Below, piece by piece: positions 1 to 6,599 of a stretch of 6,599 nt of DNA. Every line of letters begins with the position of its first letter. Within the stretch, counting starts at the first letter, position 1. A program made the position numbers and the translations under genes. The notes under the pieces are model-generated. The model had not been told where the DNA came from. It saw nothing but the letters and a program-made list of their open reading frames with translations, and ran no database searches. Location: the IMG/VR virus record IMGVR_UViG_2859827302_000009, one strand, 5' to 3'. Source of the stretch: a virus (lineage: Duplodnaviria > Heunggongvirae > Uroviricota > Caudoviricetes).

Positions 1-921
1 TCATGCTTTCCCCCAATCTTTACGTGGATCAAAAGACGACTGGGCGTCTGCCAGTTGCTGCCACAGCGCGGCAGTGTTTTCATCCGGTTTCGGCGGCATC
101 ACGATTTTCAGTACCGCATACAGATCGCCGGTCTGTTTTTTGCTCACCAGACCTTTGCCTTTAACGCGCAATCGTTGCCCGGCCTGGCTGCCTGGCGGGA
201 TAGTCAGCAAAATGCTTTCTTTCAGTGTTGGAACGGTGACTTTAGCACCCAGCGCCGCTTCCCACGGGCTAACCGGCACCACAATTTCCAGATCCTGGCC
301 GACAATATCGAACAGCGGATGTGGCGCAATATGAATCACCAGCCACAAATCGCCATTTGGACCACCGTTTTCGCCCGGCGTCCCCTGGCCTTTCAGACGG
401 ATGCGTTGACCATTGCCGACGCCCGCCGGGATCTTCACATTCAGCGTTTTCGGGATTTCCTGTTCGATCATGCCAAAGGCGTTATAAACCGGCAGGTTAT
501 AGCTGATGGTACGCTTATGCTCAGTCAGCGTTTCTTCGAGGAATACCGCCACTTCGATTTCAATATCGTGGCCGCGTGCGGCGGGGCGTTGACGGCTCTG
601 GCGGGCATGCTGACCGAAAATTGACGAGAAGATATCGTCAAAATCTTCGGCATTAAAACTCTGACCGTCGCCATGATGGAACTGACGGTTAAATTGCGGA
701 TCGTTGCGATGTTGCCACATCTGATCATACTCAGCGCGACGTTGTTCATCACTTAACACTTCCCAGGCTTCAGCGACCTCTTTGAAGCGGGCTTCGGCAT
801 CCGGTTCTTTGCTGACATCAGGATGGTATTTACGGGCCAGTCGACGATAGGCGGTCTTGATTGTCTTGAGATCGTCCGTCGGTTTCACGCCCATGATGGC
901 GTAATAATCCTTTAATTCCAT
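1..921 (-). CDS. cbpA: Curved DNA-binding protein CbpA (DnaJ-like co-chaperone), complete 306 aa; stop at 1..3, ATG at 919..921
   Basis: Full-length ORF whose translation ([53 protein letters not shown]...) matches my recollection of E. coli CbpA, with a J-domain HPD motif near the N-terminus. GC-rich, typical of core E. coli coding sequence. Confidence 0.95.
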
Positions 922-1100
922 AGCGTTATCTCGCGTAAATCAACACAAATTGAAGGAACCCCTGTAAGGTAACTCCTATAAGTGTAGGGTAATCCTCAAA
1001 ATTTCATATGCCAACACAGAATATGTTATTGAAATCATCGTGGAGAGGAGGTCGCCATCAATATGGGTTGCTGAACATATTTTAAACAGGTGAAAAAGGG
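922..1100 (-). promoter_or_regulatory. cbpA upstream regulatory region; candidate stationary-phase-type -10 element CTACACT on the minus strand at 981..987
   Basis: Sits directly upstream of the cbpA ATG. The hexamer-like CTACACT resembles the sigma-S -10 consensus CTATACT. cbpA is known to be stationary-phase induced. The exact transcription start cannot be determined from sequence. Confidence 0.35.
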
Positions 1101-1307
1101 TGAGCGATTTTTGATAGTTGAACTAGGCACTTTAAGTTTAACTAGGGCGTCATTATTTATTAAATTTTATAGACGCTATATATGGGTAGTAATATACATG
1201 GAATTAGTTGCACTGCAAATAATTATTTGAAATAGGCCTGGAACGATATAAAAAATGAGTACGAAAAAAATCAAACATATTCAATCACGCTTTTTGAAAA
1301 CACACTG

Positions 1308-1472
1308 GTGTGTTTTATGCGGTTATACAATGAACTCAGACGTAAAGTAAATGAAGAGGATACTCCATGTCTGGAATGTGAATCACTAGAAAAAGAATTT
1401 GAGGAAATGCAGAATGATAATGATCTATCATTATTTATGAGAACATTGCGTACTAATGATACACAAATTTAT
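1308..1472 (+). pseudogene. 5' fragment of an unidentified ORF (55 codons from GTG 1308, 52 from ATG 1317), cut off exactly at the IS1 end
   Basis: ORF-track frame reads MCFMRLYNELRRKVNEEDTPCLECESLEKEFEEMQNDNDLSLFMRTLRTNDTQIY and then continues into IS1 terminal sequence. AT-rich with a weak ribosome-binding site. It occupies the position of the gene between cbpA and agp (yccE in K-12), but I cannot confirm identity from memory. Confidence 0.3.
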
Positions 1473-1487
1473 GGTAATGACTCCAAC

Positions 1488-1865
1488 TTATTGATAGTGT
1501 TTTATGTTCAGATAATGCCCGATGACCTTGTCATGCAGCTCCACCGATTTTGAGAACGACAGCGACTTCCGTCCCAGCCGTGCCAGGTGCTGCCTCAGAT
1601 TCAGGTTATGCCGCTCAATTCGCTGCGTATATCGCTTGCTGATTACGTGCAGCTTTCCCTTCAGGCGGGATTCATACAGTGGCCAGCCATCCGTCATCCA
1701 TATCACCACGTCAAAGGGTGACAGCAAGCTCATAAGACGCCCCAGCGTCGCCATAGTGCGTTCACCGAATACGTGCGCAACAACCGTCTTCCGGAGCCTG
1801 TCATACGCGTAAAACAGCCAGCGCTGGCGCGATTTAGCCCCGACGTATCCCCACTGTTCGTCCAT
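1488..1865 (-). CDS. insB: IS1 InsB frame (expressed as the InsAB' fusion by -1 frameshift); ORF shown from first Met
   Basis: Translation [44 protein letters not shown]... matches IS1 InsB. The frame continues upstream to the frameshift site. Confidence 0.85.
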
Positions 1866-1909
1866 TTCCGCGCAGACGATGACGTCACTGCCCGGCTGTA
1901 TGCGCGAGG

Positions 1910-2185
1910 TTACCGACTGCGGCCTGAGTTTTTTAAGTGACGTAAAATCGTGTTGAGGCTAACGCCCATAATGCGTGCAGTTGCCCGGCATCCAACGCCA
2001 TTCATGGCCATATCAATAATTTTCTGGTGCGTACCGGGTTGAGAAGCGGTGTAAGTGAACTGCAGTTGCCATGTTTTACGGCAGTGAGAGCAGAGATAGC
2101 GCTGATGTCCGGCAGTGCTTTTGCCGTTACGCACCACCCCGTCAGTAGCTGAACAGGAGGGACAGCTGATAGAAACAGAAGCCAC
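1910..2185 (-). CDS. insA: IS1 InsA (transposition inhibitor / N-terminal part of the InsAB' transposase), 91 aa, GTG start
   Basis: Translation [39 protein letters not shown]... is the canonical IS1 InsA with its zinc-finger CxxC...CxxC motif. The A6C -1 frameshift heptamer (reverse complement of gtttttt) lies at 1928..1934. Confidence 0.9.
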
Positions 2186-2240
2186 TGGAGCACCTCAAAA
2201 ACACCATCATACACTAAATCAGTAAGTTGGCAGCATCACC

Positions 2241-2357
2241 AACACTGGCAATCATTATGATGTTTACCTCCCTCCTGAACTTTTTGCTCAGGCTTATAAG
2301 TTAAAAAATAAGGAAATGAATGCGCAACTCGACTATTTAAATCGTTATGCAATTTAA
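2241..2357 (+). pseudogene. Possible 3' fragment (38 codons to TAA at 2355..2357) of the same disrupted gene as 1308..1472
   Basis: A stop-free frame starts exactly at the IS1 boundary and reads NTGNHYDVYLPPELFAQAYKLKNKEMNAQLDYLNRYAI*. It is on the same strand as the 5' fragment. An open frame of this length can arise by chance in AT-rich DNA, so this is weak. Confidence 0.15.
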
Positions 2358-2649
2358 TGGCAAAGGCATATGCTAAAAACCATTGTTATTAGTCTCACAC
2401 TTTTTTATTGGTAAATATTGTCTCTGTATTGGTAACGCCGCAGATATTCTGTTTAGCCACAGGTGCAATTATCAGCGGCGTACGCGAGGCAGGGGCTAAT
2501 CAGGCATAGTTTGCGTCAAACCTTGCCTGTTTTTGAAGATGTATATAGAAAAACAGGCGTTCAACAAGCCATTTTGCGAACCTGTTCCCGGAAAAAAGTC
2601 ATATTTCTGTCACACTCTTTAGTGATTGATAACAAAAGAGGTGCCAGGA

Positions 2650-2760
2650 ATGAACAAAACGCTAATCGCCGCAGCTGTGGCAGGGATAGTTTTACTCGCT
2701 TCAAACGCTCAGGCACAAACCGTACCGGAAGGCTATCAGCTACAGCAAGTGCTCATGATG
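2650..2760 (+). pseudogene. agp: agp (periplasmic glucose-1-phosphatase) 5' fragment: codons 1..37 only, interrupted by IS911
   Basis: [37 protein letters not shown] matches my recollection of the Agp signal peptide and N-terminus. A Shine-Dalgarno-like aggaa precedes the ATG at 2650. The frame then runs into the IS911 terminal repeat and stops 23 codons later at 2832. The junction is ambiguous within 2759..2762 because of tga microhomology. Confidence 0.8.
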
Positions 2761-2766
2761 AAGTGG

Positions 2767-3935
<1,169 letters not shown>

Positions 3936-4007
3936 TGGAGCACCTGTGTTGTTCTGAGGTGAGCATATCACCTCTGTTCAGGTGGCCAAATTCAGTGTGC
4001 CACTTCA

Positions 4008-4184
4008 AAGCAGCCAGATTTCTGGTGCGGTTAATAAATGAGGCTGAGCTGGGTTCAGCTTGTTCCGCAGAATCTGCACATTCATGCCTGCACGTTCTGC
4101 CAGTTGCACCAGATTGTGGCGCAGTGCAAATGCACGACAGGCTTCATCAAAATATGGATGTTTGGAAACTTGGTAATCAAACAT
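4008..4184 (-). pseudogene. Phage CII-like regulatory protein (186 CII family), N-terminal 59 codons; truncated by IS911, whose terminal TGA supplies the stop
   Basis: [59 protein letters not shown] resembles the N-terminus of coliphage 186 CII as I recall it. The likely true start is ATG 4184 (the ORF track begins at TTG 4190). An agagg Shine-Dalgarno lies upstream. Confidence 0.6.
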
Positions 4185-4216
4185 GGTCAATGCCTCTGAT
4201 GTATTTCAGAATCGAA

Positions 4217-4438
4217 CTAATTAAGGTTTAGATTGCATTCTGAAAGCGCATCAACGGTCATTGCTGCTATGTTGATCATCACTTTTTCGCGTTTTTTATC
4301 TTTGCGCAGACGGTGACGGATAAGGCGTCCATCAGCCAACATGTCATTGATGGTATCGATGGATAGCCCTGTCAGCTCGCTATAGCGTTCAATAGTCACA
4401 TGAGGCGTGGTAAGAGTGATTGAAATGTTAGGTCTCAT
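4217..4438 (-). CDS. Small HTH protein in the Apl/Cox position of a P2/186-type switch (putative excisionase / lytic-promoter regulator), 73 aa
   Basis: It is the first gene of the transcript divergent from the cI-like gene and sits directly upstream of the CII-like gene. The motif [27 protein letters not shown] resembles the Cox-type HTH. ATG at 4438 is preceded by a GAGGA-like Shine-Dalgarno. Confidence 0.5.
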
Positions 4439-4563
4439 GATGCAACATTCCTCGTTTAATGATGATTAATCAGGACGAATACGGATCGTTTGTATTTTGT
4501 GAACACCATAAGCATACGATCGCACAGTGAAATCATCAAGATAAAAGTTCACTTGGAGTGACC
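4439..4563. promoter_or_regulatory. Divergent promoter/operator region of the immunity switch (between the Apl/Cox-like and CI-like genes)
   Basis: A 125-bp AT-rich gap between divergently oriented genes. Contains a perfect 10-bp palindrome TGATTAATCA (4463..4472), an ACGATCG-type palindromic core near 4516..4522, and GTGAA(C/A) motifs at 4499..4504 and 4527..4532 with an inverted copy at 4547..4553. Confidence 0.4.
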
Positions 4564-5133
4564 ATGAATTTGGAGAAAGGCGGACGAGGCGCCATAGAGC
4601 GCATGGTAGAAGCTTATGGATTCAAGACTCGACAGGCGTTGTGCGATCATTTAGGAATCTCTAAAAGTACACTCGCCACACGCTACATGCGTGACTCATT
4701 CCCAGCAGAATGGGTAATCCAGTGCGCCCTTGAAACGGGCACCTCGCTTAATTGGCTCACAACCGGACATGGTTCAAAGCAAACTTCAGGTAATACAAAT
4801 ACTATGGAAGTTGCTAAATATGTATTATCTGATGGTGCCTTGCGTGAAGACGGTTTTTATATTTTTGATAAGGGATTTCTACCCTCTACGTTTAAAAAAC
4901 CTTTTGTCATCACAGATAACAATTCTGAATTTATTTGTGATAAAGAATTTGATGACATACGTGATGGTAAATGGGTAATAAGTATTGATGGCGAAGTAAC
5001 GATCCGTGACATTACTCGTTTACCCGGTGGAAGAATCTTCGTCGAGGGTGGAAACAGAGCCTTCGACTGTAAGATAGAAGACATTGAAATAATTGGTAAA
5101 ATTATAAGTTTAACAGTTAAATATGTTAGATGA
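4564..5133 (+). CDS. Phage CI-type repressor (coliphage 186 CI family: N-terminal CI HTH domain plus C-terminal oligomerisation domain), 189 aa from ATG 4564
   Basis: ggag Shine-Dalgarno 5 nt before ATG 4564 (the ORF track starts at GTG 4558). N-terminal IERMVEAYGFKTRQALCDHLGISKSTLATRYMR...CALETGTSLNWLTTG and C-terminal ITRLPGGRIFVEGGNRAFDCKIEDIEIIG resemble 186 CI as I remember it. Length and position (divergent from apl/cII, same strand as int) fit. Confidence 0.7.
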   Translation: MNLEKGGRGAIERMVEAYGFKTRQALCDHLGISKSTLATRYMRDSFPAEWVIQCALETGTSLNWLTTGHGSKQTSGNTNTMEVAKYVLSDGALREDGFYIFDKGFLPSTFKKPFVITDNNSEFICDKEFDDIRDGKWVISIDGEVTIRDITRLPGGRIFVEGGNRAFDCKIEDIEIIGKIISLTVKYVR

Positions 5134-5148
5134 TACCGGGAGGAAACT

Positions 5149-5352
5149 ATGCTTGGTAAAGTATTTTTTGTGGTTTTATCATGCTCTTTATCATGCTCTT
5201 TGTTATTAAGCCCACTAACTACCTATGCTAAAAATTATCCTTGTTCTGGGAAAAAGGGAGGTGTCTCTCACTGTACCTCCGATGGAAAATTTGTTTGCAA
5301 TGATGGAACTATTAGTAAATCCAAAAAAATCTGTACTAAAAACTCACGATAA
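5149..5352 (+). CDS. Small secreted cysteine-rich basic peptide, 67 aa precursor (predicted Sec signal peptide, mature form about 41 aa with 4 Cys); function unknown
   Basis: Strong Shine-Dalgarno ggagg 7 to 8 nt before ATG 5149, which lies 15 bp after the cI-like stop. The N-terminus [27 protein letters not shown] has the charged, hydrophobic and A-x-A-like cleavage parts of a signal peptide. Mature part is [41 protein letters not shown] do not recognise a homolog. Confidence 0.5.
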
Positions 5353-5528
5353 CTTTTGCTTTTATATCTGCGTCTAAAATAAAAATGAGCCGCAGGTTAA
5401 CCGCAAAAGTTACATGCTCACATAGCAAAAAGAATAGCCAACTTCATTATGGCTTCAGTGAGATGTATGGTCGGGTGATGCTGCCAACTTACTGATTTAG
5501 TGTATGATGGTGTTTTTGAGGTGCTCCA

Positions 5529-5804
5529 GTGGCTTCTGTTTCTATCAGCTGTCCCTCCTGTTCAGCTACTGACGGGGTGGTGCGTAACGGCAAAAGCACT
5601 GCCGGACATCAGCGCTATCTCTGCTCTCACTGCCGTAAAACATGGCAACTGCAGTTCACTTACACCGCTTCTCAACCCGGTACGCACCAGAAAATTATTG
5701 ATATGGCCATGAATGGCGTTGGATGCCGGGCAACTGCACGCATTATGGGCGTTAGCCTCAACACGATTTTACGTCACTTAAAAAACTCAGGCCGCAGTCG
5801 GTAA
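5529..5804 (+). CDS. insA: IS1 InsA, 91 aa, GTG start
   Basis: Protein identical to the copy 1 InsA. The A6C frameshift heptamer A AAA AAC lies at 5780..5786. Confidence 0.9.
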
Positions 5805-5848
5805 CCTCGCGCATACAGCCGGGCAGTGACGTCATCGTCTGCGCGGAA

Positions 5849-6226
5849 ATGGACGAACAGTGGGGATACGTCGGGGCTAAATCGCGCCAGCGCTGGCTGT
5901 TTTACGCGTATGACAGGCTCCGGAAGACGGTTGTTGCGCACGTATTCGGTGAACGCACTATGGCGACGCTGGGGCGTCTTATGAGCTTGCTGTCACCCTT
6001 TGACGTGGTGATATGGATGACGGATGGCTGGCCACTGTATGAATCCCGCCTGAAGGGAAAGCTGCACGTAATCAGCAAGCGATATACGCAGCGAATTGAG
6101 CGGCATAACCTGAATCTGAGGCAGCACCTGGCACGGCTGGGACGGAAGTCGCTGTCGTTCTCAAAATCGGTGGAGCTGCATGACAAAGTCATCGGGCATT
6201 ATCTGAACATAAAACACTATCAATAA
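5849..6226 (+). CDS. insB: IS1 InsB frame (InsAB' transposase by -1 frameshift); ORF shown from first Met
   Basis: Protein identical to the copy 1 InsB ORF. Confidence 0.85.
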
Positions 6227-6241
6227 GTTGGAGTCATTACC

Positions 6242-6599
6242 GAAAAACAGAAGCATCCCTATCAGTAAAGAGCTTTACGAAGAGATCATGGCGCTTGATG
6301 GGTTCAATTTCTTCACAGACTGCTATTTTCAATTTTTATCCGTGATGGAAAAAACGTCTATCGTGCTCCCTCGCGGTCAACTCACACACGTTCTGCGCCA
6401 TACGTTTGCGGCGCACTTCATGATGTCGGGTGGAAACATTCTGGCCTTACAAAAAATTCTCGGACACCACGATATAAAAATGACTATGCGTTACGCACAT
6501 CTGGCACCGGATCATCTGGAAACGGCGCTCCGTTTCAATCCTCTGGCAACGCTGCCAAGTGGCGACAAAGTGGCGGCAGCGGTTGGCATTACCCCGTAA
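6242..6599 (+). pseudogene. int: Tyrosine recombinase / phage integrase (P2 Int family), C-terminal fragment of about 118 codons; 5' two-thirds missing at the IS1 junction
   Basis: LTHVLRHTFAAHFMMSGGNILALQKILGHHDIKMTMRYAHLAPDHLETALRFNPL matches the catalytic C-terminus of P2-type integrases (conserved Arg/His box and the Tyr in RYAH). The frame is open from the IS1 end and stops with TAA at 6597..6599. No integrase N-terminus is present upstream of IS1. Confidence 0.8.

Follow-up and report, generated by a model that had tools for sequence, protein, structure and literature searches.

The window analysed here is a 6,599-nucleotide stretch of DNA from a virus of the Caudoviricetes (IMG/VR record IMGVR_UViG_2859827302_000009), which contains the decayed, insertion sequence (IS)-rearranged remnant of a 186-like prophage. 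The gene described below, a ydcA-like gene, occupies positions 5149-5352 of the plus strand, immediately downstream of the gene for the CI repressor. The open reading frame (ORF) starts with the ATG at 5149 and has 67 codons followed by a TAA stop codon at 5350-5352. A Shine-Dalgarno sequence, GGGAGG, is situated at 5138-5143 on the same strand, 5 nt ahead of the start codon. The intact E. coli prophage has the identical sequence, which is a strong candidate for the ribosome-binding site of the gene. The stop codon of cI is at 5131-5133, leaving a gap of 15 nt before the start of the ydcA-like gene. The gene has a GC content of 33.8%, as compared with 40% for cI and 47-49% for cII and int, and is the most AT-rich part of the remnant. 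The preliminary description of this stretch, made from its letters alone, had called the ORF well signalled, and it proves accurate.

The product is predicted to begin with a signal peptidase I-type signal peptide (residues 1-27, from MLGK to TTYA, encoded at 5149-5229, plus strand). The signal peptide was called from hydropathy and by inspection of the family alignment. It has lysine in its n-region, a hydrophobic core with a mean Kyte-Doolittle value of 1.5-2.2, and an A-x-A-type end, T-Y-A, immediately preceding K28. The mature part, a module of 40 amino acids (aa) encoded at 5230-5349, contains four cysteines (C32, C42, C50 and C62) and an invariant histidine (H41), and has a pI of 9.6 and a net charge of +6.8. 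These features agree with the earlier account of a signal peptide followed by a basic, four-cysteine peptide, the mature length of which had been put at about 41 aa. The AlphaFold2 (AF2) model of the mature peptide has a predicted local distance difference test (pLDDT) score of 79.6 and is composed of two short hairpins. The signal peptide of the 67-aa allele found in the window carries two additional cysteines, C12 and C16. A lipoprotein was considered and rejected, because both cysteines sit within the hydrophobic core and the signal peptide does not end in a proper lipobox ([LVI][ASTVI][GAS]C). In a 63-aa allele of the gene the sole signal-peptide cysteine is at position 12, and the family members end in A-x-A, most of them having no cysteine there.

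Residues 6-67 of the protein match positions 2-58 of the 58-position NCBIfam profile NF007463 with 103.8 bits, above the curated cut-off of 93. Residues 3-63 match positions 1-56 of the 56-position profile phrog_6000 (E=9.7e-31), which is filed in the PHROG category 'unknown function' and is also matched by the copies in HP2, Mcat15 and Ab11510-phi. The precomputed Pfam assignment for the exact window protein is PF27300 (YdcA). A Pfam scan of the ORF gave no match, because the copy of Pfam used predates PF27300 and lacks its model. RefSeq labels the same gene in E. coli either 'YdcA family protein' or 'hypothetical protein'. Profile comparison thus identifies the product as a prophage-borne member of the YdcA family (PF27300, NF007463, phrog_6000), which is catalogued and functionally unknown, and the gene can no longer be called unassigned, as it had been. 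A weak NCBIfam match of the ORF to the lpg1681 family (E=0.076) was also recorded. A relation to DUF3761 or to the Excalibur motif found no support in any scan.

One member of a UniRef cluster is labelled 'Conjugal transfer protein'. This label was rejected: the two small plasmids examined have no type IV secretion system (T4SS) beside the gene, and the E. coli 'plasmid' is a prophage end. The E. coli record, NZ_CP148400.1 (pZ1323HEC0009-3, 55 kb), continues from the prophage end into the chromosomal genes rcdA, ybjJ and ybjI, and probably represents chromosomal DNA that was entered as a plasmid.

The YdcA family is widespread and strongly constrained, is found on many mobile elements and has no member of known function. 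A word-indexed search returned 183 homologues at E<=1e-3, and an exhaustive profile search returned 446 cluster representatives, 274 of them at E<=1e-10. Upon scanning one genome per species, a relative turned up in 380 or more species, which belong to the alpha-, beta- and gamma-proteobacteria. Mature parts share about 70-80% identity across a range that reaches from Escherichia to Moraxella and Comamonas. The sequences of the signal peptides vary in the alignment without restriction, but they keep their character, and all end in A-x-A. The invariant columns are P31, C32, S33, G37, G38, H41, C42, C50, G53, S56, K59 and C62, the conserved lysines are K35, K36, K47, K59 and K60, and both YdcA motifs, PCSGxKGG(V/I)SHC and CNDGxxSxSKKxC, are found in the window protein. 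Whether the ORF and its cysteines are conserved in relatives had been raised as a question in the preliminary description; the pattern C-x9-C-x5-8-C-x11-C is kept in 86 of the 86 copies compared. The proportion of differences is 0.87 at synonymous sites (pS), which are saturated, against 0.21 at nonsynonymous sites (pN), and the median ratio of nonsynonymous to synonymous substitution rates (dN/dS) over the unsaturated pairs is 0.15. The ORF at 5149-5352 is a genuine, selectively maintained gene of the YdcA family. It had also been asked whether the frame might be a degenerate piece of the 5' region of int. This was ruled out, as int begins 188 nt downstream of the gene in intact prophages and the ORF has a family of its own.

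The chromosomal member of the family in E. coli K-12 (b1419) is a 57-aa protein with a signal sequence, is predicted to be periplasmic and is of unknown function (PMC11340327). Deletion of ydcA makes E. coli W sensitive to 300 mM 3-hydroxypropionate, and ydcA is said to be acid-induced under YdcI (PMC7642389). A binding site for the sigma-S holoenzyme is located between rydC and ydcA (PMC5493296), and ydcA is up 10.7-fold in a pnp mutant (PMC9927094). The window protein, about 57% identical to the chromosomal E. coli and Shigella copies, has the same architecture as K-12 YdcA, namely a signal peptide and a module of about 36 aa with both motifs. It differs in having a longer C-terminal tail (TKNSR) and, in the Shigella form, a four-residue duplication in the signal peptide. 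The window copy fits the sub-model NF007463 but not the K-12 sub-model NF007462, against which it scores 61.9 bits with a cut-off of 118. Unlike K-12 ydcA, which belongs to the core cybB-rydC-ydcA locus, it is prophage cargo at the cI-int junction.

The cI gene of the window (4564-5133, plus strand) is of the 186 type and is intact, matching the Pfam models Phage_CI_repr (2.8e-33) and Phage_CI_C (2.7e-29); CI has 189 aa in relatives. Divergent from it is an apl/cox-like gene (4217-4438, minus strand), recognized by synteny with 186 and its relatives and by a weak excisionase-domain match, and this gene marks the position of the switch region, the expected site of the lysogenic promoter. Along the intact E. 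coli prophage the genes run cII (encoding 169 aa), apl-like gene, cI (5557-6126), the YdcA gene (6142-6333), int (6522-7574, encoding 350 aa) and host rcdA, in coordinates of that locus. The YdcA gene and its downstream spacer are present in 632 of 5426 complete E. coli genomes (about 12%), a BL21-lineage strain included. The location of the gene between the repressor and the integrase, as first reported, therefore holds for the native prophage, but in the window itself the gene is followed by IS1 and only a 358-nt fragment of int is left.

In phage 186 cI and int abut, as had been stated, and cI-int-orf69 forms a lysogenic operon that is transcribed from pL and pE and ends at a terminator. 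No plus-strand terminator was found between cI and the ydcA-like gene. Because the gene lies 15 nt after cI, within what is the cI-int operon of 186, it would be transcribed together with cI in a lysogen. The HP2 gene described below, which overlaps cI, points the same way, so that the placement for co-transcription with the repressor proposed earlier is upheld by the layout of the locus.

The cI-int junction is, as comparison of related phages indicates, a cargo slot within the lysogenic operon, of which the YdcA gene is one cargo: the slot is empty in 186, holds PD-Lambda-1 in vB_EcoM-813R9, and holds a YdcA gene together with a 'Sie-like' protein in HP2. The junction of vB_EcoM-813R9 encodes a 558-aa protein matching the anti-phage defence system PD-Lambda-1 with E=3e-120. 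This gene (3091-4767 in the coordinates of that locus) is annotated 'chromosome segregation ATPase'. Haemophilus phages HP2 (NC_003315, 2486-2668, minus strand) and S2 have an unannotated YdcA gene of 60 codons. In HP2 its ATG starts at the last base of the cI stop codon, and it is followed by orf1(S) and then int. The product of orf1(S) is a secreted OB-fold protein (PF12869) belonging to phrog_8545, 'superinfection exclusion Sie-like'. The order cI-YdcA-int is also found in three Yersinia species, the cI of which is 38% identical to that of the window. In Spirabiliibacterium and Buttiauxella an additional ORF separates cI from the YdcA gene, and in Buttiauxella no int was detected 3' of the latter. 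A DNA search of the phage collection with the ORF gave no match, the phage homologues being found only by protein search. An ORF in the cI-int slot is not mentioned in the survey of P2-like regulatory regions by Nilsson et al. 2011 (PMC3448106).

The ydcA-like gene has the features of a moron, in that it is absent from 186, deviates in GC content and lies between conserved phage genes. P2-like and 186-like prophages carry cargo or defence genes such as old, tin and fun of P2. Like such cargo, and like PD-Lambda-1 in the same physical slot of 813R9, the ydcA-like gene is an extra, AT-rich gene placed for expression in the lysogen. It differs in encoding a 40-aa, predicted periplasmic peptide rather than a cytoplasmic ATPase or nuclease, and it has no sequence relation to catalogued defence proteins. 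The junction of 186-like and HP1-like phages holds either a YdcA gene or a known defence gene, and the suggestion that the window gene is a conversion gene expressed by the lysogen is reasonable in that light. The specific functions proposed along with it, which were exclusion, receptor masking and toxicity, have no direct support.

The association with cI is far from general. It had been asked whether the homologues are always next to cI; among loci sampled one per species, a CI-type repressor is directly upstream in 5 of 77 and an integrase directly downstream in 7 of 76. Other neighbours are cytochrome b561 (in the core cybB-ydcA arrangement) and baseplate, Mu Gam, Rha and type VI secretion system genes. 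Homologues are present in the late regions of Moraxella Mcat phages, in Acinetobacter Vieuvirus phages (where they are unannotated), in a Pseudomonas phage and on 58 plasmids, including Moraxellaceae plasmids of 3.9-5.4 kb with about five genes.

Several of these genes have recurrent partners. In four independent Moraxellaceae elements the YdcA gene is followed by a gene for a membrane-anchored phrog_23546/21802 protein: the 3.9-kb A. pittii plasmid pApiMCR53a (728-1697), the 5.4-kb Psychrobacter plasmid pA40P1 (2932-4091), phage Mcat15 (3938-4764), all in coordinates of the respective locus, and an A. chengduensis contig. In Moraxella caviae the next gene encodes a secreted OB-fold protein of phrog_8545 (E=5.8e-31), as does its counterpart in HP2 (E=8.6e-9). 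Neither of the two recurrent downstream partners of Moraxellaceae and Pasteurellaceae elements was found in the prophage of the window. A YdcA paralogue of 132-136 aa is followed by a gene for a 414-aa protein, 38-46% identical to the C-terminal T5orf172 part of PD-Lambda-1, in Salmonella enterica subsp. arizonae, Enterobacteriaceae bacterium 89 and Enterobacter sp. kpr-6 (about 5920-7720 in locus coordinates).

Among the longer family members the module occurs in tandem, in two, three and up to 19 copies, the last in a protein of 2134 aa. It also occurs after a signal peptide and ahead of SNase, Endonuclease_NS (twice), PLDc_2 and VasL domains, and in some members a PBCV basic adaptor domain is added. 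Judging from these tandem repeats and signal-peptide-led fusions, the YdcA module is portable and works outside the cytoplasm.

Upon comparing the family profile with the sequences of the Protein Data Bank (PDB), one solved structure was found, chain AN of 7MUC/7MUD (E=1.5e-6). This chain is Dis2 (Lpg0823), a component of the Legionella Dot/Icm type IVB secretion system (PMC8486379). Both halves of the chain are matched by the profile, with three of the four cysteine positions in register. In a Foldseek search with the AF2 model of the mature peptide, Dis2 took first and second place, with a best TM score of 0.60 and a deviation of 1.8 Å over 35 columns having 43% identity. A search with a 47-aa fragment of Dis2 retrieved two truncated homologues, one of which carries PF27300. 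Dis2 consists of two lobes, which resemble each other in sequence as well as structure and are fastened by five disulfides, and it contacts the outer-membrane lipoproteins DotK, DotC and DotD (PMC12716638). The five disulfides are visible in the cryo-electron microscopy (cryo-EM) density, in which Dis2 is located near the outer membrane (PMC8486379). It is held to be specific to Legionellales, and YdcA is mentioned in neither study (PMC8486379, PMC12716638).

By this comparison, Dis2 looks like two YdcA-type modules in tandem. The link is only modestly significant in statistical terms, and the similarity is at the level of the domain only. The window protein and Dis2 share a signal peptide and, in each lobe, the pattern C-x-x-x-GG-(V/I)-x-x-C ... 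G-x-x-V-C-N-(D/N)-G-x-x-S. The cysteines of Dis2 are disulfide-bonded in the periplasm beside the outer membrane, and by analogy the same would be expected of the window protein. The window protein consists of a single module with four cysteines in its mature part, as against the two lobes and five disulfides of Dis2. Dis2 belongs to a secretion machine, but nothing other than phage, IS and housekeeping genes is encoded in the window and the related prophage loci, and T4SS genes are absent from both. If taken further, the link to Dis2, together with the leads from the cI-int junction and the nuclease fusions, could reveal what an orphan E. coli gene and a T4SS subunit do.

The following mechanism is proposed. 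In lysogens the ydcA-like gene would be transcribed with cI from the lysogenic promoter, as the layout suggests. The precursor would be exported by Sec and cut after T-Y-A, releasing a strongly basic 40-residue peptide into the periplasm. There, the four invariant cysteines would form two disulfides, as suggested by the analogy with Dis2 and by the oxidising character of the periplasm, and the peptide would adopt a compact fold of two small hairpins. Judged by its relatives, the module would be neither an enzyme nor a toxin but a small unit for binding or docking beneath the outer membrane. The conserved lysines and the very high conservation across hosts suggest that its ligand would be anionic and shared by many bacteria, for instance nucleic acid or some part of the envelope, rather than a host-specific protein. 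The net effect would be to provide the lysogen with an extra envelope-located factor of the YdcA type. A small periplasmic binding or docking module expressed by the lysogen is the most likely role of the product, a view we hold with a confidence somewhat better than even. As to what such a module would do for the cell, a fitness or stress effect is put roughly on a par with exclusion of phage or DNA, the first being given a little more weight, and some other benefit is weighted like exclusion. Taken by itself, the gene in the window is an ordinary cargo gene of a known family in a decayed prophage. The wider leads are the slot shared with a defence gene, the unannotated copies in HP2 and S2, the link to Dis2, and the fusions to secreted nucleases of three unrelated folds.

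A number of observations weigh against this role. A consensus promoter scan found no convincing lysogenic promoter, so that co-transcription with cI rests on synteny, and neither a promoter nor a plus-strand terminator of the gene's own was detected. The prophage is defunct and the signal peptide carries a four-residue duplication, so the gene may no longer be important in this genome. When the signal peptide is left out of the family profile, the E value for Dis2 is only 1.5e-3, and the Foldseek E values for Dis2 are only 0.13-0.34. Dis2 is not basic and has a tyrosine where YdcA has its invariant histidine. The phenotype of a Dis2 deletion is mild: the machine remains intact and the translocation of some substrates is slightly changed (PMC12716638). 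Deletion of ydcA in E. coli is likewise mild in effect, giving only a sensitivity to 3-hydroxypropionate (PMC7642389). Finally, nuclease fusions make up four of the approximately 20 long members among the 150 matches listed and are not a general rule.

The alternative that survives best, itself considered unlikely, is superinfection or entry exclusion, in which the periplasmic peptide stops phage or plasmid DNA from entering, or covers an envelope component on which phages depend, protecting the lysogen and the small plasmids that carry homologues. The location of the gene in the lysogenic operon would suit such a function, as would PD-Lambda-1 in the same slot of 813R9, the PD-Lambda-1-like genes that follow YdcA paralogues in three enterobacterial species, and the carriage of homologues on Moraxellaceae plasmids of 3.9-5.4 kb with about five genes. 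The polycationic nature of the peptide, the nuclease fusions and the presence of Dis2 in a conduit for DNA or protein are consistent with it too. A 'Sie-like' phrog_8545 gene is next to the YdcA gene in HP2 and Moraxella caviae, but that label is the annotation of a neighbour, not a test. The PADLOC defence models gave no match at E<=0.1 to the ORF or to three homologues, and phrog_6000 is without an assigned function. Moreover, the family includes the core cybB-ydcA gene and many non-mobile loci, and an identity of 70-80% between mature parts across genera is ill-suited to the masking of host-specific receptors. The Spackle protein of T4, Llp of T5 and Cor of phi80 are superinfection-exclusion proteins of the periplasm or envelope. 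Like these and the phrog_8545 proteins, the last being a neighbour in HP2 and Moraxella caviae, the window protein is small, phage-encoded and predicted to be exported to the envelope. Unlike them, it is not a lipoprotein, its family is also chromosomal and highly conserved across hosts, and no homology to them was found. Receptor masking and exclusion, two of the functions originally offered for the gene, have no direct support: there is no PADLOC match, and the conservation across hosts is too high for a receptor-specific mask. The same can be said of toxicity, given that the gene has no immunity or export partner.

The allele in the window differs from the copy in the intact E. coli prophage, which aligns as a 63-aa protein, by a 12-bp tandem duplication at 5176-5199 on the plus strand (two copies of TTATCATGCTCT). 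The duplication is in frame and inserts SCSL in the hydrophobic core of the signal peptide. Shigella records contain the exact 67-aa protein, on 143 contigs, and among named sources the 67-aa form comes from Shigella only, the E. coli copies having 63 aa. Five Shigella chromosomes still have the prophage at its native site (8857-11445 in locus coordinates). There, cI, the apl-like gene and the YdcA gene are intact, whereas an IS element interrupts cII, int is split, gene A is broken and the methylase gene is also disrupted. The survival of cI and the YdcA gene amid this decay could reflect selection for the repressor plus its cargo, or merely the small size of the genes. In these chromosomes the same remnant lies at rcdA/ybjJ.

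These observations bear on the possibility that the gene has lost its function in this genome, the small ORF having stayed intact in appearance by mere chance within a dead prophage, with neither expression nor use any more. The window has truncated cII and int genes, insertions of IS1 and of an IS3-family element, and a remnant relocated beside agp and cbpA; in addition, small genes are small targets for disruption, and the allele carries the 12-bp duplication. On the other hand, the duplication is in frame and falls within a hydrophobic core that tolerates change, the cI and YdcA pair is intact in several Shigella genomes, and the exact protein is found on the 143 contigs mentioned above. 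The operon may still be active, since neither cI nor the switch region upstream of it has been damaged. A chance survivor is accordingly held to be distinctly unlikely.

A more far-reaching proposal, to which we attach only a slight probability, is that the YdcA module is a polycationic, disulfide-stapled periplasmic binder of DNA or of an outer-membrane-proximal conduit for DNA entry. Prophages, from within the lysogenic operon, and small plasmids would deploy it in its free form as a new type of factor for entry or superinfection exclusion; it would also direct secreted nucleases to their substrate and would decorate the Dot/Icm channel in the form of Dis2.

Metal binding, in which the four cysteines and the histidine would chelate zinc or copper without forming disulfides, for buffering or delivery, appears very unlikely. 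The four cysteines and H41 are invariant, and some chromosomal homologues in Enterobacterales lie beside genes for cytochrome b561, PepSY_TM and DUF2946, of which PepSY_TM and DUF2946 often occur in metal or redox loci; this neighbourhood, however, was seen at three loci of closely related genera. The predicted destination is the oxidising periplasm, the cysteines of the Dis2 lobes are disulfide-bonded in the cryo-EM density (PMC8486379), and the position of the histidine is taken by tyrosine in Dis2. Least probable of all is a secreted cationic, bacteriocin-like toxin directed against competitors, which the small, cationic, cysteine-rich and presumably secreted product of a gene found on mobile elements might bring to mind: it has a Sec signal instead of a double-glycine leader, this prophage has no immunity, transporter or modification gene near it, its family is a single-copy core gene in E. 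coli and very highly conserved across three proteobacterial classes, whereas bacteriocins diversify, and the module is found N-terminal in larger enzymes and as part of a secretion machine.

The remainder of the window consists of damaged prophage genes, IS elements and host DNA. A scan of the whole window against Rfam matched no family. The truncated cII gene (4005-4190, minus strand) retains 61 of about 169 codons, matching positions 2-53 of the 146-position Phage_CP76 profile. It is cut by an IS3-family element, which we take to resemble IS911, at about 2767-3971, with orfB at 2767-3606 and orfA at 3633-3971. Through this element the remnant is joined to the agp/yccE/cbpA locus, which makes up positions 1-4004 of the window together with the IS elements. 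There, agp is cut after its first codons by the IS3-family element, and yccE is split by IS1.

Downstream of the ydcA-like gene lies a conserved spacer (5353-5473, plus strand), which precedes int in intact prophages. It contains a hairpin at 5390-5406 that has no T-tail on the plus strand and was scored as terminator-like on the minus strand. The match to the intact prophage is exact up to 5473 and ends there, where the terminal repeat of IS1, GGTGATGCTGCCAACTTACTGAT, begins. The 768-bp IS1 (5474-6241, plus strand), with its InsA and InsB ORFs, has taken the place of about 49 nt of the spacer and of the 5' two-thirds of int. What is left of int, its last 358 nt, lies at 6242-6599 on the plus strand and matches positions 129-170 only of the Pfam profile Phage_integrase. 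A second IS1, identical and inverted, is located at about 1473-2240. Recombination between the two inverted copies (1473-2240 and 5474-6241) could invert the 3.2-kb segment that lies between them.

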